A DNA stretch of 64,000 bases from Mustelus asterias (GCF_964213995.1 NW_027591158.1:1-64000), one strand, 5' to 3'. Shown: positions 12,889 through 48,284, counted from the stretch's first letter. The notes: a model not told the origin generated them from the letters alone. Translations and numbers: made by a program.

Positions 12889-14557
12889 TTACTGTTTAAT
12901 GAATTTCAAAATTCCAGTTACTGGAAACATCACCACATTTTTCAGATCCTCTCTGAACTGTGTCTGTGTCACTGCATAGATGCATGTGTTGGTGCAGCAA
13001 CTCAGGAGTTGGAGCATAAATCCTAATTCCTGAAGAAAATGTGGTAAACGCGACAGAAATAATTTAAACATGTACAGTCGGTCATAAAAACAATAGAAGA
13101 GGAACACTGACCATAACAGGAGAAAATTTCCCGATATTGCAAACAGTATGATGATAGATTTTCTTCTTTTCTCTATCTCTGGGTCACTTGGACTTTCCCC
13201 ATTCTTGTGGGTCCGAAGTCTCCTGCGGACTTTACTCAACACCACAATGTATTTAACGGTTAAAACGTTGAACAGCACAACCAACAAAAAAGGAATAGTC
13301 GGGGTTAAAATATAGTGGAGACTTTCAGCTGCTGTCCATGCTGGTGAGGAGGTGACATCAAAATCTACAGAACAGAAATAGGGAGTATTGGAAAGCCAAT
13401 AGCTATTCTCACACATAAAGTACCAGAAAGTGTTTTTTACAGTGAATACCACACTCACTGTTCCTAGAACCACAGTTGCCGTTTCCTCAGTGCAGTATTT
13501 TATTTTCAGCTTCTGACAAGTAATGGCCACGAATCGATCAAAGGTAAAAGTGACAGTGAACCAGACAGAACAGTCAGTGACTGCGTAAAGCAGGACGGCA
13601 TGGATATTGCACACTTTAACATGATACATGAAGACAAATTGATCTCTGAAACTGATGGGAATTTGCCTCAATACGAGGTCGATGATGACGACGAGTAGAT
13701 CCGCCGCTGACATGGAAATTAGGTAACGTGAGACACATTTGGAAAGTCCACACCTCCCTCGAGACAGGATAAGAATCGTCAATAAGTTCACTGCAGGGAA
13801 GTGAGAGACAATTAACTCATATTTCAGACTGAGAACAGGAGCAGTAATCTGGCAGGTTTCTGGGGAACAGCTGCAGGATTTTGTTTTACAGAGTCCAGCC
13901 TCAGAAAAACATGGATTCACCTGTTCTGCTGAGACTGGGTTCACAGTAGGAAAGCATCGCACTGAGCTATCAAGAAACTAAATTTACCAACAGAGCAGAT
14001 CTCCAATTCCCTGCCTTCTCTTTATTTGTATTTGGGAGACACAATGGTACCAATGGGTTTGGACGAAATGTTCCTGGTCTGGGTCACTCTGCTGTGGCTG
14101 TGCTGCAGACTGTGCATCTGAAGATATTGCATAAGTTGATTTGGAATTGGCTGTAAATCACAAAACTGGAAATTATATATTTTATTTTACTGAGGCAGGA
14201 CCCTGTAGATATTAAGGCAGGAATAGTGGAAGTGGCCGGTGAAGGTGTGGTGGGAGTGAGGAGAGGGGGTTGGTAGTGGGGAAGGGGGAGAGTGGGAAAT
14301 AGAGAGCAACCACCAGGCAAGAGTAGGGAAAATGTCTGCTGGGAAGATAGAGAAATTTTCCCATTGCATTAGCACATATGCAACATGAAGTTTGCACATT
14401 ATAAAATTATTAATTGGGTCTCATGGACAAGTGCAATCAACAGAGTGAAATTTAACTCACCAGCTACACCAACTGCAGCGAGGAGTGGGTAGTAAATCCT
14501 TTGGATATCGTGAAGTACCCAAGCAACACGAAGCTCAAGTGGAATAATCCAGAACAT
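12889..14557 (-). CDS. Class A GPCR, GPR139/GPR142-like; exon 1 14557-14461, exon 2 13790-12889
   Basis: Exon 1 MFWIIPLELRVAWVLHDIQRIYYPLLAAVGVA then G|gtgagt; acceptor ttccctgcag|. Exon 2 VNLLTILILSRGRCGLS...ADLLV...FTFDRFVAI...SCCTNTCIYAVTQ. Seven hydrophobic segments, frame intact. The track ORF start at 13962 is intronic. Confidence 0.9.
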
Positions 14558-20630: not shown

Positions 20631-21133
20631 CCTCCATCGCACAGAAATAGGTGGCGGTGTCTGTCAGCCGAGCTTCACTAACATTCAGAACGCTGTGTTT
20701 CTCTGAGAAAGTATACCGAGCCGTGATCCTGCCCTGATCGCTGGTACCGCTCACCAGGTGCTGCACGGTTCTGTCTGGATTTTGTCTGTACCATTGAAGG
20801 ATCTTTCCAGTTACTGTAGCTGAACAGTTCAACGATGCAGTGGCTCCCTCGGTAACAACCACTGACTCCGGAGACTGTGATAGCTCTTCACTGCCAGCGG
20901 CATCTGGGAAGAATATGTACATTTGCAGTAAGAACATATCGTACTATAATGTAGCACAATAAAGTACCATTGTATTCACAATTCGAGATAATACAATAAA
21001 GCTGAGTACAATTTAACAGAACATAACATTGCTGAGGTGTGAAATATTGCTGTCAGAAATAGTGACCACACTTACACTGAGGGAACAGTAAGAAATCCAG
21101 GAAAATAATCACCAAAGTGAAGCTCAGAAACAT
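20631..21133 (-). CDS. TCR alpha/delta-type V segment V3 (leader 21133-21076, V exon 20903-20631), short CDR2
   Basis: MFLSFTLVIIFLDFLLFPQ then T|gtaagt; EELSQSP...LNC...WYRQ...TDTATYFCAME. Confidence 0.92.
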
Positions 21134-21361
21134 GTTGGATCCTATCGGCTTGTGTGAAACAGCTGTCAGCAGATCCCAGGCTGAGAGAAGCTCCTGGGAA
21201 AGCAATGCTATTGGATATCAAACCGAGCCCCAAACCAGTCACAGAGTGGCGGTGAGAGCCGGGTCGCTGGGACTTGTGATCACAAAGTGAATCAGTGAGG
21301 GAGCTTCAGCATTGATAGTGCGGGGGAGGAGAGTGCGCATGCGGCAGAGCATCCGGTATTG

Positions 21362-21438
21362 TGACGTCAGAACATCCGGCATTCTGACGTCAGAACATCC
21401 GGCATTCTGACGTCAGAACATCCGGCATTCTGACGTCA
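21362..21438. promoter_or_regulatory. Tandem CRE (TGACGTCA) array with 23-bp period, upstream of V3
   Basis: TGACGTCA at 21362, 21385, 21408 and 21431; two more at 21853 and 21875. Confidence 0.7.
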
Positions 21439-21461
21439 GAGCATCCGCAACATTGGAACCT

Positions 21462-34600: not shown

Positions 34601-34949
34601 TGGATTCACCCCGAGCTGGGTTCACTCAGTGTTCTGATAGGGCGAATGGTTCCCCAGTTAGACACGTGGGACGAGATTTGTAACCGGAAACATGGGGTCA
34701 CTGATGGGGTTTATTTATTCCGGCTTCAATTCTTCATCTCCGATTCCAGTAGAATCGATGCCAGTGAATGTGGGCGGATAAAACCCGAGTCTCAGCTTCT
34801 TTCATCAGTTCGACAGAGAGACGCCCCAGTTGGACACGAAGCAGGTGTTTGACTCCTTGTAAATTCTTCCGAATATTAAACCCAGGTCCTGGTTCTGATC
34901 TGAACTCCCTGGACAATTACTTCAGCAGAAATTTCATATGATCTGAAAA

Positions 34950-35282
34950 ATGCTCCGAATTTACAGACTCTCTTTGCTGTGTTTCACTCTGACCTGCACT
35001 GGGGTGACTGGAGCAGATGAGGTGATGCAGCTTCCTCGGCGGAAGGTTGTTAGTGAAGGGGGAACCGTATCCATGAACTGCACCACGATCACTACATTTA
35101 GCAACCTACATTGGTACAGACAGTCCCCGAATCAGCCACCCCAGCATCTGGTGATGGCCACAAGAGAAACCGATCTACACGAGGGGATCACAGCCTCAAT
35201 CGGCGGAGGCTACAAATTCAGCGCCCTGACTGTGAGAGACGCCGGAGTTACAGACACCGCCACCTATCTCTGCGCCGTGAGC
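34950..35282 (+). CDS. TCR V segment V7, single-exon leader+V
   Basis: Continuous ORF MLRIYRLSLLCFTLTCTGVTG-ADEVMQ...MNC...WYRQSP...TDTATYLCAVS with no intron. Confidence 0.88.
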
Positions 35283-35321
35283 CACAGTGTGACAAACACA
35301 GGGAGAGCCCATGCAAAAACC
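35283..35321 (+). other. RSS of V7: CACAGTG-23-GCAAAAACC
   Basis: Counted directly. Confidence 0.93.
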
Positions 35322-36931
35322 TGCATCGACAGTGAGAGCCACTCTGCTGTGTCTGCAGGAGCGGCAGAGTGAGTGATGGGATTATTTTTTAAAATCCGTA
35401 AAGAAAGGAAATGAGCGCAACACAAAATAAAACATACAATCTATTTATTGAAATCCCGTTAAAATGAAGATAGTTGAAAACAGATGGAGAAGAGGAACGA
35501 GGGAACATGTAAACTAGACTGAGTGAGAGGAAAACAGAACATAGGAAAGTTCAGTTATCATAGGAGAAGTGGACAGAAAATGAATAAACTGTTGAAATAG
35601 AAATGGAAGAGATTGGAAAGTGTGATAGACAGTTTAAAAATCAGGTAATATCATGAATAAAGAGGGGATGGCCTAGTGGCATCATCGTGAGATTATTAAC
35701 CCAGAAACTCAGTTAATATTCTGGGGACCCCGGTCCGAATTCCTGCACGGCAGGTGGTGAAACTTGAATTCAATAACAATTTAGAATCTACTGAAACCAT
35801 GAAACCATTGTAGATTGTCGGAAACACCCATCTGGTTCACTGATGTACTTTAGGGAAGGAAATCTGCCGCCCTTACCTTGTCTGGCCGACATGTGACTCC
35901 AGAGCCACCGCAATGTGGTTGACTCTCAACTGCCCTCCAACGAGAGCCCGTGACGCCTAAGTCTCACAAATGACTAAAATAAACGCTGATATTTACGAGA
36001 TATTTAAACGGCTGAATTTCCTGAAACATCTCCTAAAATCCGGGCACTGGAAACTGCCCTATCGACAAATTTGCACTTTGCTCATTATCCGCACATTGAA
36101 AGTTTCACAACCTGTGAACCTGTGATGGGTGTGTCGAGCTGCGGTTCCTAAGGGACCGTGTGAGAGAACTGGAACTGCAGCTCCGGGATCATCGTCTGGT
36201 TAGGGAAAATGAGGAGGTGACAGACAGGAGCTATCAGCAGGTGGTCACACCAGGGCCAAGGGAGGCAGACAAGTGGGTAAGTCTGGAGAATTCAATTCAC
36301 ACCCCTGACTTGTACCTTGGAGATGGTGGACAGGCTTTGGGGAGTCACGAGGCGAGTTACTCGCCACAGGATTCCTAACCTTTGATCTGCTCCGGTAGCC
36401 ACGGTATTCATATTCTTCGGTCCAGTTCAGCTTTCGGTCAACTCCCAGGATGTTGTTGGGGGTGGGGGAGAGGAAGGGGGGGAGCAGAGGGGAGGATTCC
36501 GCGATGGCAATGCCATTGAATATCAAGCAAAGTTCGTCAGATCCTCTTCTTTTGGAGACGGTCATTGCCTGGAACCTGTGTGACCTGAACGTTGCTTCCA
36601 CTTATCAGTCCAAACCTGAATATTGTCCAGGTCTTTCTGTATTTGTGCAGAGACCAAATGTCTGATTCCAGACAGTGTAGTATCATGTTTAAATTAAAGA
36701 ATGCGGATGATTTCCTCACCATAAAGCCCACACTCACTGAGCGACTGTTCCTTCAATCGGATTAGTTACATCCTGACTCTCAATATGTCTGAGAAAAGGA
36801 AAGTCGCTGTCAGGAATTGCAAAGCCCCGGGTAACCCCGCTCACCTGCTCCATTTCCTGCTCTAGTTCTGGCAGCTATTGCCTGCAGTCTGCTATTTGTA
36901 GGATTGCTGCAGCAACTGAAAACAGGCGTGA

Positions 36932-36970
36932 GGTTTTTGTACAGTGACGAGCGTCTTTCCTCTCAGTGTG
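36932..36970 (-). other. RSS of V8: CACACTG-23-ACAAAAACC
   Basis: The + strand reads ggtttttgt-23-cagtgtg. Confidence 0.93.
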
Positions 36971-37380
36971 GGCTGTATCGCACAGTAATACAGAGCGGCA
37001 TCCGCGCTCTCCGTGTTTTCAATAACCAACTGGCCCCGTTTGCCCGCAGTGGAAAGTTCCAATTCGAACCGGTCTTTTCTCTCTTTGCCATTCGATGATC
37101 TGCTTATTATCCACTCGAGTCTCTGACCGGGTTTTTGTCTGTACCAATACATTCCATAAATGCTGGACATCTCATAACTGCAGTTTATCAGCACCGAATC
37201 CCCGCTCTGGACTGTTCTCGCTGTGGGAGTTTGTGAAACTTGGTCCGAGCGACACCGATCTATAAAAAAACATTCATACAGTGAGACACTGGAGCAAAAT
37301 TATTATAAATAAATAGCTCCACAAATAAATATCCTGCGCTTACAAGTTAGCACCACCAGAATGATAAGGAACAGTTTCAT
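36971..37380 (-). CDS. TCR alpha/delta-type V segment V8 (leader 37380-37344, V exon 37259-36971)
   Basis: MKLFLIILVVLT then T|gtaagc; DQVSQTP...INC...WYRQKPG...ADAALYYCAIQP. Confidence 0.92.
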
Positions 37381-37879
37381 TTGCACCGTGTGATATAATA
37401 ACAATGTCAGTAAGAATACGGAGCACAGCTCACAGCAGAAGAGCATGGATTGAATCAACGTCTTCAACATTTGGCAAATGTAAGATGCACCAGATAAAGT
37501 TTCAGACACTTGGGTTTTCTGCAATCTGATTGGCTGGAATCAGACTCCGTGCTTCCGGTATCAGGATGTGGTTGTTGATCCGAAGCTGCTTCTCTTCCGG
37601 GTCACGTGTGAACAAATCAATTGTCCAAAAAACAGGACACTGCTTTACTGCAGTAACTGTCATTTATAAAAGTGGTTAAAGTTTAACTTCACCAATAAAG
37701 GCATGATTTTAAAATGAGGTTGCCCTCATTTTAAAGTTATGTATGATAAATGCGTGACCAATAATATGTTGGAAATATTGTTTCTCGATTTACTTTTGCG
37801 AAATATAATTGATTCCCCTTGTGTTTCAAACAGTCACATTTTCGCCACCTCTGAGGCACTCCACATGTCATTGCTATTT

Positions 37880-38455
37880 GTCATGTGGAGTTCTGGCGTT
37901 GGACTGGGGTAGGAACAGTAAGTAGTCTCACAACACCAGGTTAAAGTCCAACAGGTTTATTTGGTGGCACGAGCTTTCGGAGCACTGCCCCTTCATCAGG
38001 TGAGTGAAGAGTTCGGTTCACAAACAGGGCATATATAGACACAAACTAAATTACAAGATAATGGTTGGAATGCGAGTTTTAACAGGTAATCAAGTCTTTA
38101 CAGGTGCAGACAATGTGAGTGGAGAGAGGGTTAAGCACAGGTTAAAGTCGTGTGAATTGTCTCCAGCCGGGACAGTTATTGAGATTTTGCAAGCCCAGGC
38201 AAGTCATGGGGGTGACAGATAGTGTGACATGAACCCAAGATCCCGGTTGAGGCCGTCCCCATGTGTGCGGAACTTGGCTATCAGTTTCTGCTCAGCGATT
38301 CTGCGTTGTCGTGTGTCGTGAAGGCCACCTTGGAGAACGCTTACCCGAAGATCAGAGGCTGAATGTCCCTGACTGCTAAAGTGTTCCCCGACAGGTAGGG
38401 AACACTGCTGCCTGGTGATTGTCGAGCGGTGTCCATTCACCCATTGTCGTAGCAT
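37880..38455 (-). mobile_element. Penelope-like element fragment (GIY-YIG endonuclease C-terminus plus terminal repeat)
   Basis: LRQWVNGHRS...PVGEHFS..GHS...RRIAEQKLI..F.T...GLNRD; terminal sequence also at 26205-26265 and 34145-34252. Confidence 0.8.
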
Positions 38456-38514
38456 TTTGTTCTCATTTTATTACAACCAAGATTATCATCTCCCTGAGCT
38501 GACGTCAGCTGCGA

Positions 38515-38838
38515 ATCATAAAATCCCTACAGTGCAGAAGGAGGCCATTCGCCCCATCGAGTCTGTACCGGTCACAATCCCACCCAGGCCCCACTCCCGC
38601 AACTCCGTGCATTTACCCTGCGTATCCCCTGACACTCGGGTCAATTTAGCATGGCCAATCAACCTAACCTGCACATCTTTGGACTGTGGGAGGAATCAGC
38701 AGCAGCCGAAGGGGACCCACGTAGACAAGGGGAGAACATGCAAACTTCATACAGAAAGTGATCCGAAGCCGGAATTGAACCCGGGTCCCTGACACTGTGA
38801 GACAGCAGCGCTAACCATTGTGGCATCATGCCGCCCCG
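38515..38838 (-). mobile_element. tRNA-derived SINE (duplicate of 10250-10572)
   Basis: Near-identical reverse complement. Confidence 0.88.
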
Positions 38839-39083
38839 TAACCAGTGAAGCAATCACTGTTAGTTAATGATTTAATATAGCTGGCATTTTCCAATCACAT
38901 TCCTTCCCTGGCCGTAAACGTATTTCTAAAGTCTTTGCTCTCTCTCTGCTCTCTCCCACATAACCAGTTATTCTGTCTCATTAACTGGTTAACTCGCTTT
39001 CCTCAGAACTCAGTCCATCAATCTTTCTGAAGGCAGATCCTTTTTTTCTAATTCAGGTGAAAAGTGAAATTAATATAATTTAT

Positions 39084-39408
39084 GGGCGACACGGTGGCAC
39101 AGTGGTTCGCATTGCTGTCTCACAGCCCCAGGCACCCGGCTTCAATTCCAACCTCGGGTCACTGCCTGTGTGGAGTTTGCACATTCTTCCCGTGCCGGCG
39201 TGGGTGTCCTCCGGGTGCTCCGGGTTTCTGCCACAGTCCTAAGATGTGCAGGTTTGCTGGATTGGTCATGCTGAATTGTCCCTTAATGTCAAGGGGATTA
39301 GCAGGCTAAATATGTGGGGTTACGGGGATAAGGCCTGGGTGGGATTGTTGTCGGTACAGGCTCGTTGGGCGTAATGGCTCCTTTCTGTACTGTAGGGATT
39401 CTATGATT
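39084..39408 (+). mobile_element. tRNA-derived SINE (duplicate of 9715-10002)
   Basis: A/B-box head; gattctatgat tail. Confidence 0.85.
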
Positions 39409-39539
39409 ATCAGCAGCCTAACGGACAGGTATTAATGAGTAACATCCACGACTTAACATAATTAATACTTCGTGCTTTAAGTATACCGAGAATAAGCAGT
39501 CACCCAACTCTGCACCAGGAAATCTTTCACGTACCCAAA

Positions 39540-40032
39540 ACATAGAAACTAGAAGGAGGAGTAGGCCATTCGGCCCTTTGAGCCTTCTCCGCCATTCAGC
39601 GTGTTCATGGCTGATCATCGAATTCAATATTCTGATCCCCCCTTCCTCCCATTAACCGTTCAAATTTCTTCCTGAAATCAGGCAACGTTTTGGCCTCAAG
39701 TACATTCTGTGGTAATGAATTCCACACATTCATCACTTTCTGGGTGAAAATATTTATCCTCACCTCAGTTCTGAAAGGTTTACCCCTTATCCTCAAACTA
39801 TGACCCTCGTTCTGGACTCCCCTACCATTGGGAACATTCTTTCTGAAGCTACCCTGTCTAACCCTGTCAGAATTTTGTAAATTTTTATGAGATCCGTTCT
39901 CACTCTTCTAAACTCCAGTGAATATAATCCTAACAGAGTTAGCCTCTCCTCATATAACAAACCTGCCATCCCAGGAATCAGCCTGGTAAACCTTCGCTCT
40001 ACTCCCTCTATAGCAAGGACATCCTTCCTCAA
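39540..40032 (-). mobile_element. CR1-like LINE 3' fragment
   Basis: ERRFTRLIPGMAGLLYEERL; paralog of 9165-9622. Confidence 0.85.
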
Positions 40033-40416
40033 ATAGTAAAGTTCTGATTTCAATCAGTCAATCTTTCTTCTCCACAAATTTAAAATGGGACAATTCTGAA
40101 GCTGCATTTGATAATAGATCACTTTTAAACTGTGTCGCCTGACAGAAAGGCACCTGATCCGGATTTTTTTCTAAGTACAGATTAACGAAGTTATTCACCC
40201 GGGGTAATCTGCAAATTTGTGCGAATTTGATCGGAGAATGATTGGATTTGATCCGGGAATAATATGACCGCCAAATGTGACATTACTGATAATGGATGAG
40301 CTCTGCGGGGAATATCGTTCAGCTGGGGCTGTATTGTCCCCTTCCCTTTCTGGGCATTTTCGATGAGATCCGACTCTTTTTTCCTGACACAGAACACCTG
40401 ATTATCGACCTGCGCT

Positions 40417-40455
40417 AGTTTTTGTATGAGGCCCGCGGGAGCCTCATTCACTGTG
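40417..40455 (-). other. RSS of V9: CACAGTG-23-ACAAAAACT
   Basis: The + strand reads agtttttgt-23-cactgtg. Confidence 0.95.
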
Positions 40456-40938
40456 GGTCTCAGTGCACAGTAATACACGGCGCTGTCTGGCATCTTCAAA
40501 TCTTTCATTGACAAGTGAAAAGTGCTTTGTGTCTGGTTGAGGTTCCCGCTGAAATGTTCAAAGCCGGGAGCCGTATCGTTAAACCCATAACTATCGGCTC
40601 TGAGGAGATACTGAGGAGCTCGGTGTGGATACTGGCGATACCAGAACAGGTCATGTTGTATAGCTGAACTCGGTACAGAGTAACTGCAGGGTATTGCTGA
40701 ATCTTCACCCTCTGCTGCTTCAACTCTTGGTTCTGACTGGAACACTGAGTCTCCATTGCTCATCTCTGAAAATAAACAGCGGACGCACAGCGGGTTAGGA
40801 GACAGAGGAAGACGATAGTCACACAGAGCTGGGAAAGGGAAATTGCACAAGGGTTGAAATATACTTTACAATCTGTGACCAGAATCACTGACCTGGGATC
40901 AGAGCAATAACCAGGGTCAGGAACATTTTCACCCCCAT
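40456..40938 (-). CDS. TCR alpha/delta-type V segment V9 (leader 40938 or 40926 to 40893, V exon 40765-40456), inverted paralog of V1
   Basis: MGVKMFLTLVIALIP then G|gtcagt; the V domain differs from V1 at about 5 residues. Confidence 0.92.
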
Positions 40939-41596
40939 GGTTCCAATCTGAGCTCCAGAATTAGGGAGGGTGATCTCTGTCTGAACGGGACCTGGAATGT
41001 GAGAAATTGAAAGAGTTAGCAAGGTGTGACGCGATTGGCTGGGATTTATTTTCCTCGCCCATTTTTATATCTGCAAAAAGTCACTCTGCAGAAGGCGACT
41101 GTGATGTTTGGTAAGTGATCAGAGAGCGCCCTCCCGTGGACAGTACCAGCGCATTGGAAACAGATGCAGAACGAAGAGCCCAGATATGTACAGTCTGAGA
41201 AATATAAAGACCCAGAAATATCTAGTTCAGGTACAACACGGACAAGAGGAAATAGCCGCTCCACATCCACACCATTAATACCCCTTCGGGTTTTAAGGCT
41301 TTGAGAAAGTTATCTCTCAATCTTCGAAACTCAGTGGATACAAATCCAGCATCAGTACCCTTCTGCTTATCCAGAAAACCCGCTCATACCTGGTAATACC
41401 TTCTCTGGACGTTTGCTAACGCATTACCGTCTTTCTATAGATAAGGAATCAAGTATTGTGCACAATACTCCAGATGTGATCTCTCCAATGCCCTACACAA
41501 CGGAAACATACTGGAATTTAGAAGAATGGGTGGAGATCAAATTGAGGAATACAAGATGACAAAAGGTATGGATAAAGTAGACGTGGAGTAGACGAC

Positions 41597-41795
41597 GGCG
41601 GCACGGTAGCACAGTGGTTAGCACTGCTGCTTCCCAGCTCCAATGTCCCGGGTTCGATGCTCGGGTCACTGTCTGTGTGGAGTTTGCACATTCTCCTCGT
41701 GTCTGCGTGGGTTTCCTCCGGGTGCTCCGGTTTCCTCCCACAGTCCAAAGATGTGCGGGTTAGGTTGATGGGCCAGGTTTAAAACATTGCCCCTT
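41597..41795 (+). mobile_element. tRNA-derived SINE, 5' part
   Basis: ggcggcacggtagcacagtggttagcactgctgc...gggttcgat. Confidence 0.88.
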
Positions 41796-42346
41796 AGAGC
41801 TTCGCTGTACATGGTGGCAGCATCTGCCCGAGATTCTACACTAACCCCAGCAGACATGTCGATCATTTGGCTAAGATCAAGCGTTAGATCAAGCCCAATA
41901 TCAGGTGCACGGCCTTTTCTTGTCACCTCGGATCTTGGTTTTATATATATATATATCTTGCGGGGACCATGTCTTAGATTCAATTTGAATTGGTTTTTGC
42001 AGCAATTAAGAGATTCTGGCCTGTGCGCTCTGCGTATTGGCTTTGTAACGTTAAGGAATTACTATTTTTAATCCAGCAGACAGGAGCTCCCGGACACAAA
42101 GCAGAGTGCAATTGTGGGACTGCTTTCCATTATAAACTCAGGCGATGAGTTCTTCTGATCAACTGTTCAGAGTGCAAATTCTCCACCTGGAGATGGAGAG
42201 AGGTTTGGCTGCCTGGACGGTGCTGTTGCCGCTGCTTATCTCACCGATTGTCTGCTGACATGAGTAAGACTCCTTATGAGTGCAGCTCATCGGGATTAGC
42301 GAGGAGCAGAATAATACAAAATCACTCCATGTAATACCATAGGTGA

Positions 42347-43232
42347 AACAAAGAACAAAGAACAATACAGCACAGGAACAGGCCCTTCGGCCCTCCAAGC
42401 CCGCGCCGCTCCCCGGTCCAGGATTGAATCCTGAATCCAGGATCCCCGCCCAATTTTCCAGCCTATCTACATCCTAATATCCTATCCACCGAGCTGTCCC
42501 TCACAGCTACGATGCATTGTTCATCACAACCTATTAACTCACCCCCACCCCCCCATTCCAGACCATGTGATCTCCAGGGAGAGGCGAAAACCCAGAGTGA
42601 AAACCCCAGGGCCAATATGGGGAGAAAAAAACATCTGGGAAATTCCTCTCCGACCCCCTGTGGCGATCGAAACGAGTCCAGGAGATCACACTGGCCCTGA
42701 TCAGAAAATGCTTCCCAACCCTATTCATTTCCACTTCTGCTTTACGAACACCATCTGAATTCCCTGCCCCCGAGACAGGTTCCCAACTATCCGCAGTCTC
42801 GCTCTGTACTGGCACCAGCAAGATGATCATAGAATGAAGCCTTGAAACGAGAAACAAGGAACAATTAGCCCGCGCCGCTCCCTGGTCCAAACTAGACCAC
42901 TCTTTTGTATCCCTCCATTCCCACTCCATTCATATAGCTGTCTAGATAAGTCTTAAACGTTCCCAGTGTGTCCGCCTCCACCACCTTGCCCGGCAACACA
43001 TTCCAGGCCCCCACGACCATCTGTGTAAAATATGTCCTTCTGATATCTGTGTTAAACCTCCCCCCCTTCACCTTGAACCTATGACCCCTCGTGAACGTCA
43101 CCACCGACCCGGGGAAAAGCTTCCCACCGTTCACCCTATCTATGCCTTTCATAATTTTATACACCTCTATTAAGTCTCCCCTCATCCTCCGTCTTTCCAA
43201 GGAGAACAACCCCAGTTTCCCCAATCTCTCCT
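42347..43232 (-). mobile_element. CR1-clade LINE 3' fragment, same young subfamily as 23900-25710
   Basis: Near-identical to 24830-25705 in reverse. Confidence 0.93.
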
Positions 43233-44685
43233 TTAAAAATAAACAACTTGTCACTCTGTCTTATCATTTGAGGACAGTAGATAATTTCCATGACTCAGAT
43301 TTGAAATACACCTTCAAACAGGAATTGATCATATTGGAGTGTTTTTAAACGTTAGGTTGAAATTACGATTGGGAAATGAGATTAAATGCGTTGATTCCAC
43401 AATTGCCTCTCTGAAATTCCCCCTCCCACCCCCAGGCTACACAGCACATTGTCGCTGTCCGCTCTGTAAAAGGGAAGCTGAAGTAAGAGAAGTCTCGATC
43501 TCATCTGCACTCTCGTTAATCTGCTCTAGTTTGATTGCATCCTCATGTTATTCGCATGTTTCCCCTGTAACTCCATCTGTTTTTCCTAATCTGTGCCTTG
43601 ACTTCTATCACGATCTCGGCCTCGAGTTCACCCACTGTCTTTCCATTCGTTCATTTTCATTCCTTAACACAACATAATATAACATAGTACATGATACCGA
43701 CAGGATTATTTCCGAGAGCTTCTGGATGCCCGAGGAAACCAGACCAGCAGCATAACCGCCTCGTAAAGCTTCCCGGACCCGCTGCAGTAAACACACAAAC
43801 ATGGTGAGGCACCGCCATCTGGCGGCAATCTGAGGTAACTGGTCATTTCCTGGAAAATCAACCTGTCAGGCGGAGTGAGAACAGGAAATCGGTTAATTTT
43901 TAACTGTTCTCTTCCTTTTATTCCTTTATTGTCTTTCCTATCCGCCTCCTACGCTTTCCCCTTTCCATTTCTTTCCTCCTCCTTTGCTTCCCTTTCCCCC
44001 CATTTTCTCAATTTTACCTCTTTTCCACCCATCTCCCCCCTCCCTCCTTATCTTCATCTGTCACAGCTTACCCTCTGATTTCAGTTTCTCTGTCGTTTGG
44101 CCATTCACACCTACTATTCTCTCTTTGGACTGCCATTTGCAGCTTTTCCCTTTGTTTTTGTGGCTATGACTCATATTTCATTCCCTCACCAAAAAGTATA
44201 AACATCTCCCACTTCTCATGCCTTTTAGCTTTGACAAAGGGTCATCCGGACTCGAAACGTCAGCTCTTTTCTCTCCTTATAGGTGCTGCCAAAGCAGCAG
44301 AGATATTCCAGCATTTTTCTTTTGGTTTCAGATTCCAGCATCAACAGTAATTTGCTTTTATTTTAAATTAGTTAATGGTGTTCCTGAATCATAGCCGGAG
44401 CCCAAATTAAAAGAGCTGATCTGGAACTGTGAAAACTCCCCGTAGCTGATGCAGGAGGCCACTGAGTCCTGAGAGAATTGAATACAACAATGTGGTAAAT
44501 AGCCAAACACCATCTTTTAAATGGGATGAATGGAGGGCTAGAATTAGCTATTTAATAGATTTACGCAGAATGAGAGTGGATGGACATTCCATGTAGACCC
44601 TGACCTTAGGATCTCGATCACTTGCAATATTCGCAGCATTGTTACACAAAAAATCGTGTTCACGGTAAAGGGGTGGTTCGTCCAA

Positions 44686-45286
44686 ACTATGTTTCTGCAT
44701 TTGTTCCTTCAATCAACTTTTCTTCAATAAAGACACGCGCTCCGATAATGAACTTAATACAATGTCCTTCTGCCCTCTCCTAGTGGAAAAAAAGCACTAC
44801 AATATACAACTTTAATCGGTATTTTGTCAGAATTAACACTGGCTCTGTTTCATGATGTTAGATCCAGTTTCCACTATTCCCCCCAACCCGCATCTTGTAT
44901 TAGAAATAGATTTTATGTCATCCATTCTACTTCTACCTGAACTCCTGAAGATAGAGGTGGAGTGACACAATATCCATGATCCGCTCTAAAAAGATTGTTG
45001 GAACATCGGATGATCAATGAGTTCCAACAATGAAAATCAGATTTAATACCACCAGGCGCAATCAAAAAGAAAAGAAAGTAAAAATATACTTCATACTGAG
45101 GAGAATGATCAGCAGTTGTTGGAATCAATCTTGATTCCAAAATGAAACAGGTTGTTTTAAAGCTGTATATTGTAGTGCTTTTTTTCCACCAGGAGAGGGC
45201 AGAAGGACATTGCATTAAGTTCATTATCGGAGCGCGTGTCTTTATTGAAGAAAATTTGATTGAAGGAACAAATGCAGAAACATAGT
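44686..45286. repeat. Inverted repeat with 130-bp arms (44686-44815 and 45157-45286)
   Basis: actatgtttctgcatttg...aatatacaactttaa pairs with ttaaagctgtatatt...gcagaaacatagt with few mismatches. Confidence 0.9.
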
Positions 45287-45927
45287 GTTAACACTGATAA
45301 CAAACTTATTATTTTTTAAAATATTCTTATGAGTTGTCAATGTTGCCACTCCTGTAGTTATGTACCAACTATTCGATGGATAGACTAGTTCCCATTGCAC
45401 AAGTTCCCAAATTATCCAACGATATTTTAGGACTAACATCAGGACCTTCTTCTTGTCAGACCGGGACTGGTCACAGTGTGGAATGAAACTTCAGAAAGAA
45501 CGAGAGAGCAAAATGCACTGAAATCGTTGGATCGTAGAACAGAAGGAACGTTGTAAGCTCTCCCGCAATGAAAGAGCTATAACAAGAAGGAGGAAACAGC
45601 TCTTCTCATTTATAACTATCTCGTGAACTGCAACTTGTCGAAGATCCAAGTGAAGAATTGCACCCTGGAATTACCAGTATTCACCAGTAGAGAGCAGTGT
45701 GTCGCGTGAGAAATATTTAATCTGGGCGTGTCAGGTGTGTCCTCAGAGGTTGTGTGGGTCTGTGTCAGTGTGAAACGCTCAGTATGGGTGGCTAAAGTAG
45801 AACCCGCCTAATGTTGTCAGTTCAACATAAACACGGCACTGAACTGAACCCGAAGAGAATACTTGGTTCCGGGTTAATTTCCATCTCCTGGTTCAAAGCT
45901 GATCTCGGTGTTGTGTGTGAACTGAGA

Positions 45928-46260
45928 ATGGTCAGGATTGGCATCGACGTTTTGTTGTTTATCACTCTGATCTGCACGGGGATGACCGGAGAAGCTGAGT
46001 TGCTGCAGCTCCCTCCACGGATGGTTATCAGTGAAGCGAGAAATATATCCATGAACTGCACTATTTCCATTACGTTTGACATCGTGCGTTGGTACAAACA
46101 GCTCCCGAATCAGTCACCCCAGCATCTGGTGATGGCCACAAGAGGAACCGATCAACACGGGAGGATCACTGCTTCGATCGGTGAAGGCAGCAAACTCAGC
46201 ATCCTGACTGTGAGGGACGTACAGGTTTCAGACACTGCCACCTATCTCTGCGCCGTGAGG
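45928..46260 (+). CDS. TCR V segment V10, single-exon leader+V (paralog of V7)
   Basis: MVRIGIDVLLFITLICTGMTG-EAELLQ...MNC...WYKQLP...SDTATYLCAVR with no intron. Confidence 0.88.
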
Positions 46261-46299
46261 CACAGTGTAAAAAACACAGGCAGGTCCCGTGCCAAAACC
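46261..46299 (+). other. RSS of V10: CACAGTG-23-GCCAAAACC
   Basis: Counted directly. Confidence 0.9.
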
Positions 46300-46929: not shown

Positions 46930-47533
46930 AACCTGTTTCCAATATGCGGCAGTGCTGTCCACGGGAGGGCGCTCTCTGATCACTTATGAAAAATCACGAT
47001 TCCCTTCAGAGGGAGCGACTTTTTGGTTGACTTTGGTTGACTTTTTGGTTCGGTTGATTGGCCATGCTAAAATTGCCCTTAGTGTCCTGAGATGTGTAGG
47101 TTAGAGGGATTAGTGGGTAAATATGTAGGGATATGGAGGTAGGGCCTGGGTGGGATTGTGGTCGGTGCAGACTCGATGGGCCGAATGGCCTCTTTCTGTC
47201 CTGTAGGGTTTCTTTTCTATGATTGAAGATGTAAAAATGGGCGGAGAGACGGAGTCACTTTCGACCTCATAACATCCCCCTGACTGTTTCAACTTCTCCA
47301 TTTCCAGGTCTTATGCAGACAGTGATCACTGCCTCTGTTTCTGGTGTTCAGACTGGAACTATGGGGGTGAAAGTCTGTCTGTCTCTGGCTATTGTCCTGA
47401 TCACAGGTTGGTCATTTTGAACCTTTGACTGAAATCCGCCAATCACCATATTCATTGCCCATTTCCATTTCTAGGCGATTATTCCGTTGTTGTTACTCCT
47501 TCTAACCCGCTGCGTGTCTGTTGTCTATTTTCA
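46930..47533 (+). pseudogene. Orphan V1-family promoter, leader (47361-47406) and intron; V exon missing
   Basis: Homologous to 8015-8413; MGVKVCLSLAIVLIT then G|gttggt; SINE piece inserted at about 47045-47225. Confidence 0.8.
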
Positions 47534-48006
47534 CTCAGTTATCCAGCCTGCAGACACACCAGCGAGTTCACACTGGGGAGAGGCCGTTCACCTGCTCTCA
47601 GTGTGGGGTGGGATTCACTCAGTCATCCCACCTGTGGATACACCAGCGAGTTCACACTGGGGAGAGGCCCTTCACCTGCTCTCAGTGTGGGGTGGGATTC
47701 ACTCAGTCATCCCACCTGTGGATACACCAGCGAGTTCACACTGGGGAGAGGCCGTTCACCTGCTCTCAGTGTGGGAAGGGATTCTGTGATTCATCCAGCC
47801 TGCTGAGACACCAGCGAGTTCACACTGGGGAGAGGTCATTCACCTGCTCTCAGTGTGGGAAGGGATTCTGTGATTCATCCAGCCTGCTGAGACACCAGCG
47901 AGTTCACACTGGGGAGAGGGCATTCACCTGCTCTCAGTGTGGGAAGGGATTCTGTGATTCATCCAGCCTGCTGAGACACCAGCGAGTTCACACTGGGGAG
48001 AGACCA
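47530..48006 (+). pseudogene. C2H2 zinc-finger array fragment (5 full and 1 partial finger, 84-bp repeats)
   Basis: ([28 protein letters not shown])n; no ATG in frame; both ends abut V-derived sequence. Confidence 0.85.
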
Positions 48007-48284
48007 CTTTTATAAATGACAGTTACTGCAGTAAAGCAGTGTCCTGTTTTTTGGACAATTGATTTGTTCACACGTGACCCGGAAGAGAAGCAGCTTCGGA
48101 TCAACAACCCACATCCTGATACCGGAAGCACGGAGTCTGATTCCAGCCAATCAGATTGCAGAAAACCCAAGTGTCTGAAACTTTATCTGGTGCATATGTT
48201 GAGACGTTGATTCAATCCATGGTCTTCTGCTGTGAGCTGTGCTCCGTATTCTTACTGACATTGTTATTATATCACACGGTGCAA

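Follow-up and report, generated by a model that had tools for sequence, protein, structure and literature searches.

We analysed a 64,000-nucleotide stretch of DNA from the shark Mustelus asterias (GCF_964213995.1, NW_027591158.1:1-64000; hereafter the window), which holds 11 antigen-receptor variable (V) segments with recombination signal sequences (RSSs) of 22-24-nt spacer; an RSS scan of the window returned 12 matches, 11 at the V ends and one spurious. Two of the segments, V7 and V10, are real single-exon leader-V genes with an RSS and a predicted signal peptide, the leader and the T-cell receptor (TCR) alpha V domain lying in one exon. Their features are as follows:

34853..34949, plus strand: 5' untranslated stretch of V7, colinear with the ATG in contigs of a related shark (runs probably RNA).
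34950..35282, plus strand: V7, a single exon with a leader (about 21 codons, predicted) and a TCR-alpha V domain (V-set match; the nearest Atlas clusters bear TRAV names).
35001..35003, plus strand: Gly codon of V7, split by the leader intron in other V genes; no AG stands ahead of it.
35283..35321, plus strand: 23-RSS of V7 from the RSS scan, with heptamer, 23-nt spacer and a nonamer with one mismatch.
45928..46260, plus strand: V10, a single exon with a leader and a TCR-alpha V domain (V-set), 63% identical to V7.
45979..45981, plus strand: Gly codon of V10, unsplit, equivalent to that of V7.
46261..46299, plus strand: 23-RSS of V10, with heptamer from 46261, 23-nt spacer and a nonamer at 46291-46299 with two mismatches.

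A first-pass annotation of the window had proposed that in both genes the leader runs straight into the V domain and that an RSS is retained, and both proposals hold: the frame is open from the ATG at 34950 to 35282 in V7 and from the ATG at 45928 to 46260 in V10, and heptamer, 23-nt spacer and nonamer follow at both V ends. The other nine V genes in the window carry the phase-1 leader introns ascribed to them, each having, 26 codons ahead of its first Cys, a phase-1 AG acceptor that is preceded at 84-193 nt by a hydrophobic first exon. At the same phase-1 site the dinucleotide is TG in V7 and GG in V10, the open frame reaching back to an ATG 17 codons upstream. A matrix built from 17 true acceptors, which scores those acceptors themselves at 6.0 or higher (mean 16.9), gives this site -2.3 in V7 and 0.5 in V10. 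Cryptic acceptors downstream were ruled out in both genes, as the AGs there score -9.6 or lower; an AG 116 bases upstream in V7 (score 6.3) was rejected as an acceptor as well, since it precedes the ATG and the contigs of the related shark read through it. The N-termini show a basic start, a hydrophobic core and small residues ahead of the V domain, the hydrophobicity of the best 8-residue window being 2.38 in V7, at the low edge of the spliced leaders (2.41-3.95), and 3.34 in V10. Both V-set domains have the two Cys and the Trp, and their nearest named relatives are TCR-alpha; a protein search with V7 alone gave no matches and a longer search only distant multi-domain proteins. V7 and V10 thus have the V-set domain and the 3' 23-RSS of TRAV genes and lack the phase-1 split leader.

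The two genes belong to a large family, so that the first-pass annotation, correct in taking both as real, understated the scale by dozens. Among the best 150 of 152 matches to V7 in the 3.68-Gb genome we found at least 77 places on 44 contigs with at least 56% identity to V7, counts that are lower bounds and in which some pairs may be alleles. Parsing the regions of the 30 best matches and 40 further regions yielded 82 V records, 56 of them belonging to the family (53 distinct places). An AG acceptor is present in none of these 56 and in all 26 records of other V families, and the recurrence in 56/56 records excludes a chance absence of the intron. All but one of the 56 have an unbroken in-frame ATG at -17 or -19 codons, the split codon and the first Cys remain the same distance apart, and eight of eight further copies, mostly pseudogenes, are colinear too, making 64 parsed or aligned copies, all intronless. 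On contig C71, 12 copies stand in a tandem array whose repeat unit measures about 2.46 kb, and flanks are common to most single-exon subfamilies. The array and the shared flanks suggest that the family spread by DNA duplication, in line with the earlier proposal of intron loss followed by duplication.

Several further observations concern this layout. The minus-strand 12-gene array (G000:C71, 19.36-19.40 Mb) lies roughly 1 Mb downstream of the block of joining (J) and constant (C) segments on this contig; its genes would rearrange by inversion, and the differences within the array cluster in complementarity-determining region (CDR) 1. The TCR-alpha V region as a whole is hugely amplified or duplicated in the assembly, its V genes spanning over 12 Mb of C71 and its J clusters lying on two contigs, C71 and C546. 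In one single-exon subfamily, L037 (G000:C88; also L031, L032, L045, L046 and L050), the upstream region, tested for L037, is unrelated to that of the other subfamilies, and an acceptor-like tract about 100 bases ahead of the ATG possibly reflects another promoter or a spliced 5' untranslated region.

Searches in both directions identify V3, which lies in the window on the minus strand, as the nearest intron-bearing family:

21076..21133, minus strand: V3 leader exon 1 (19 codons plus one base).
20904..21075, minus strand: phase-1 leader intron of V3, 172 nt, with an in-frame ATG 11 codons ahead of the acceptor.
20631..20903, minus strand: V exon of V3, with a perfect 23-RSS from 20630.

Among the matches listed in the reciprocal search, 55 V3-family places are followed, after a gap, by the single-exon family at 41-49% identity. 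In a tree including chimaera and catshark domains from a HMMER search, the single-exon family is monophyletic (98/99) and stands next to V3 and three chimaera genes. V3, which the first-pass annotation had picked as the closest relative with an intron, therefore stands as the sister family by reciprocal search and by tree. The clade of V7, V10 and V3 has V domains that are 2-12 residues shorter than those of other shark V families (85-88 versus 90-97), mostly around CDR2. Ten of 12 V3-family introns (at 20904-20937, minus strand, in the window; L052-L062) contain an in-frame ATG 11 codons ahead of the acceptor together with a hydrophobic frame, and unspliced V3-family transcripts could yield a short alternative leader. 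The V3 promoter region (21345-21447) holds 4.5 copies of a 23-base repeat with a cAMP response element (CRE) palindrome in each, as do other V3-family genes; within 400 bases of seven single-exon representatives no CRE palindrome was found.

The family is transcribed and joined to J in a related shark, where the runs (X1-X4) are probably RNA; they were taken as RNA by guess, none of the listed runs that hold the sequence being recorded as RNA, and come from one study, comprising two data sets each filed twice. Their contigs cover 34853-35283, with nothing past the RSS and no joints, and cross the border between leader and V without a gap (e.g. 34950-35139); V10-like contigs (45914-46077 and 45915-46221) behave like the V7-like ones, and in the DNA-like runs X5 and X6 the contigs continue beyond the RSS. 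The contigs of the relative contain no joint that would splice an upstream exon into V7-like or V10-like domains. Transcripts are thus probably colinear across leader and V in the relative, in support of the first-pass annotation. One contig passes from the V end into J-like sequence, and the J motif of this contig occurs at 29 places in two J clusters. At 18.38-18.42 Mb of C71, 26 J segments with 12-RSS are followed by a C1-set exon, which is the layout of a TCR-alpha locus, and members of the single-exon family lie on both sides of this block. The J-joined contig accordingly represents the rearrangement expected of a TRAV gene, to a J of a 12-RSS cluster ahead of a C exon, and the family would encode a usual TCR-alpha chain, only the splicing step being skipped.

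Orthologues of the family occur in other sharks. The TCR-alpha cDNA table of the nurse shark (source data of Table 1 in PMC5931798) has rows labelled aV9, and by eye seven of 19 match the V domain of the single-exon family and one matches V3; these seven are rearranged cDNAs, the table gives V domains without leaders, and the passages concerned are silent on the exon structure of the leader. The label itself covers at least four unrelated V types and is a mixed bin. In a bamboo-shark gene model (P0007) and a metagenome open reading frame (P0006) the leader is homologous and keeps the register, and the frame of each continues through the RSS; two metagenome scans recovered no DNA of P0006 or relatives. 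As all the other shark V families sampled carry the leader intron, a single loss before the split of nurse and bamboo sharks is the simplest reading; we infer that the intron-bearing state is ancestral, and the loss likely predates this split.

Taken together, we favour, at about an even chance, an account according to which V7 and V10 represent a large shark TRAV family whose leader intron was lost once, in place, in an early shark, probably through reverse-transcribed spliced RNA. A spliced RNA would have been reverse-transcribed and the cDNA would have recombined with the genomic V gene, removing the intron and keeping the 23-RSS, and the intronless copies would then have multiplied by ordinary DNA duplication. 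The unrearranged template that the first-pass annotation had called for to explain the RSS is not needed, as a cDNA recombining at the 5' end would leave the genomic RSS intact. Recombination with a cDNA, exact deletion in the genome and recruitment of the 3' end of the intron fit the end state equally, and we place the cDNA route first solely because the general pattern of intron loss in vertebrates favours it.

Several points weigh against this account. None of the tests made singles out reverse transcription: the leader has an identity of 0.39 to the first exon of V3 and 0.36 to the V3 intron end, and at the protein level V3 leaders rank 8th to 30th among 75 unrelated leaders (BLOSUM). The first exon of V3 is no nearer to the leader than the intron end or unrelated leaders are, and the precise loss by reverse transcription proposed earlier was not borne out; we dismissed as coincidence a stretch of five residues shared by V3 and V10-type leaders. 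Upstream, homology to V3 is no longer present, the flank alignment of the single-exon family with V3 staying at background level (z at most 4.6; unrelated pairs at most 5.2 upstream), so that the loss in place is what we infer. Germ cells are not expected to transcribe T-cell V genes. The supporting runs are only guessed to be RNA and stem from a single study of another species, P0007 and the chimaera genes are represented by protein sequence, and monophyly of the family depends on the outgroup, appearing in 12% of bootstrap trees, at 71/93, or at 98/99 only with the chimaera rows (the bootstrap not being fully settled).

Compared with retrocopies, the family shares the absence of the intron. 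No poly(A) tail was found in the 260 bases after the RSS of seven representatives, which hold purine-rich sequence only, and age would erase such a tail as well as any target-site duplication. Instead of being inserted away from a parent locus, the family is interspersed with intron-bearing V genes, both in the window and to either side of the J-C block of C71. A CR1-type reverse transcriptase copy, of the kind pointed out earlier, is real in the window, and local copies provide no evidence for the route, because the reverse transcriptase of long interspersed nuclear elements works in trans and the event is likely older than the split of nurse and bamboo sharks.

Alternatively, an in-frame deletion in the genomic DNA might have excised the intron, via a short sequence common to donor and acceptor and possibly aided by germ-cell breaks near V genes, a route we regard as credible though somewhat unlikely. 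It would reach the same end state without germline RNA, and V3-family donors and acceptors both end in CAG. Passages on marsupial TRMVj, which has no leader intron, offer intron deletion as the alternative to retrotransposition (PMC2275272, PMC6170632), and RAG activity in shark germ cells, the topic of PMC2193156, could be a source of breaks. However, no remnant of the intron could be demonstrated, and a match to the first exon of V3 at a 4-codon offset is no better than that of 14-27 of 74 unrelated leaders and is restricted to derived subfamilies.

A further possibility, which we consider unlikely, is that the leader was recruited de novo, a new ATG in the pyrimidine-rich 3' end of the intron creating a hydrophobic core, with the old first exon being dropped and the acceptor AG decaying. 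The raw material exists in the ten of 12 V3-family genes with the in-frame ATG and open hydrophobic frame described above. Compared with the V3 intron end, the leader reaches its highest identity at zero offset (0.41, versus 0.23-0.37 at 30 other offsets), although the V3 first exon is equal at zero offset (0.40); of the last 13 bases, 5.4-7.4 agree with V3-family acceptors, although V2-type acceptors agree with them equally (7.3) and donors and acceptors have the same terminal consensus. Moreover, the ATG of the family stands at -17 or -19, beyond stops in most V3 introns, and no relic of a first exon was seen upstream. If recruitment were true, unsplit antigen-receptor leaders would need no retroposition.

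The single-exon state could also descend from one event older than the split of sharks and birds and be common to chicken TRAV1, which we think quite improbable. In chicken TRAV1 (Valpha1), according to passages of PMC10972964 that credit Gobel 1994 and Parra and Miller 2012 for the unsplit leaders, the leader lies in a single exon in all but three of 48 genes, and most TRGV1 genes are alike. The chain and the anatomy are the same, chicken TRAV1 as described there being an expanded TCR-alpha family of unrearranged genes with leader and V in one exon and an RSS, and an approximately unbiased test does not reject a joint clade of a bird TRAV1-type domain and the shark family (p=0.23). The best tree, however, pairs the one bird domain included (curlew P0123, with the TRAV1 motif of PMC10972964) with sheep TRAV (96/87) and groups the shark family, as a different V lineage, with the intron-bearing V3 family, while the chicken TCR structure 6LIR is outside the best 60 PDB matches shown (the V family of 6LIR was not checked). 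The N-terminal motif of bird TRAV1 is absent from the single-exon shark family. The shark family differs from chicken TRAV1 also in having an intron-bearing sister family at the same locus and in being J-joined in the relative. The tree favours independent origins of the shark and chicken single-exon leaders, which is likely the case.

That genes of the V7/V10 type are decayed copies without an acceptor, their hydrophobic frame being nothing but a polypyrimidine tract, has scarcely any probability: some copies are pseudogenes with stops or frameshifts, and the ratio of nonsynonymous to synonymous differences (pN/pS) is 0.77 in the leader, like the 0.73 of the V domain, with no clear constraint in a set restricted to full-length records whose ATG is at -17, but ATG and frame are kept over subfamilies with a mutual identity of 57-65% and in two other data sources, and colinear J-joined transcripts exist, given that the runs are RNA.

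A split leader counts as a hallmark of V genes of antigen receptors, and its absence has been taken as a sign of retroposition. In cartilaginous fish, germline-joined lambda (type II) light chains may have an unsplit leader too, which would be another leader-intron loss in this animal group, though in an Ig light chain with VJ pre-joined and no RSS. Passages of a 2025 paper assign a split leader to all antigen-receptor V genes (PMC12227049). The chicken and marsupial precedents invoked in the first-pass annotation are found in passages of PMC10972964 and PMC2275272; TRMVj, as described there, is a germline-joined VDJ without RSS, whereas the shark genes are unjoined and rearranging, V7 and V10 being fused to no (D)J and having an RSS. 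Passages of duck, axolotl, salmonid and catfish papers contain no unsplit leaders, and a literature search, with key shark TCR papers outside its reach, turned up no description of single-exon TCR V genes in sharks. The family is probably unreported in sharks, its kind being already known from birds. As a large, old and working TCR-alpha family it provides a second case beside chicken TRAV1, with an intron-bearing sister for comparison. V-gene finders requiring an acceptor will overlook dozens of shark genes or misjudge them. The change is limited to gene architecture, and receptor function is expected to be unaltered.

Between the V genes of the window we also identified an intact single-exon gene for a rhodopsin-family G-protein-coupled receptor (12889-13977, minus strand) and a fragment of a C2H2 zinc-finger gene (47506-48015, plus strand).

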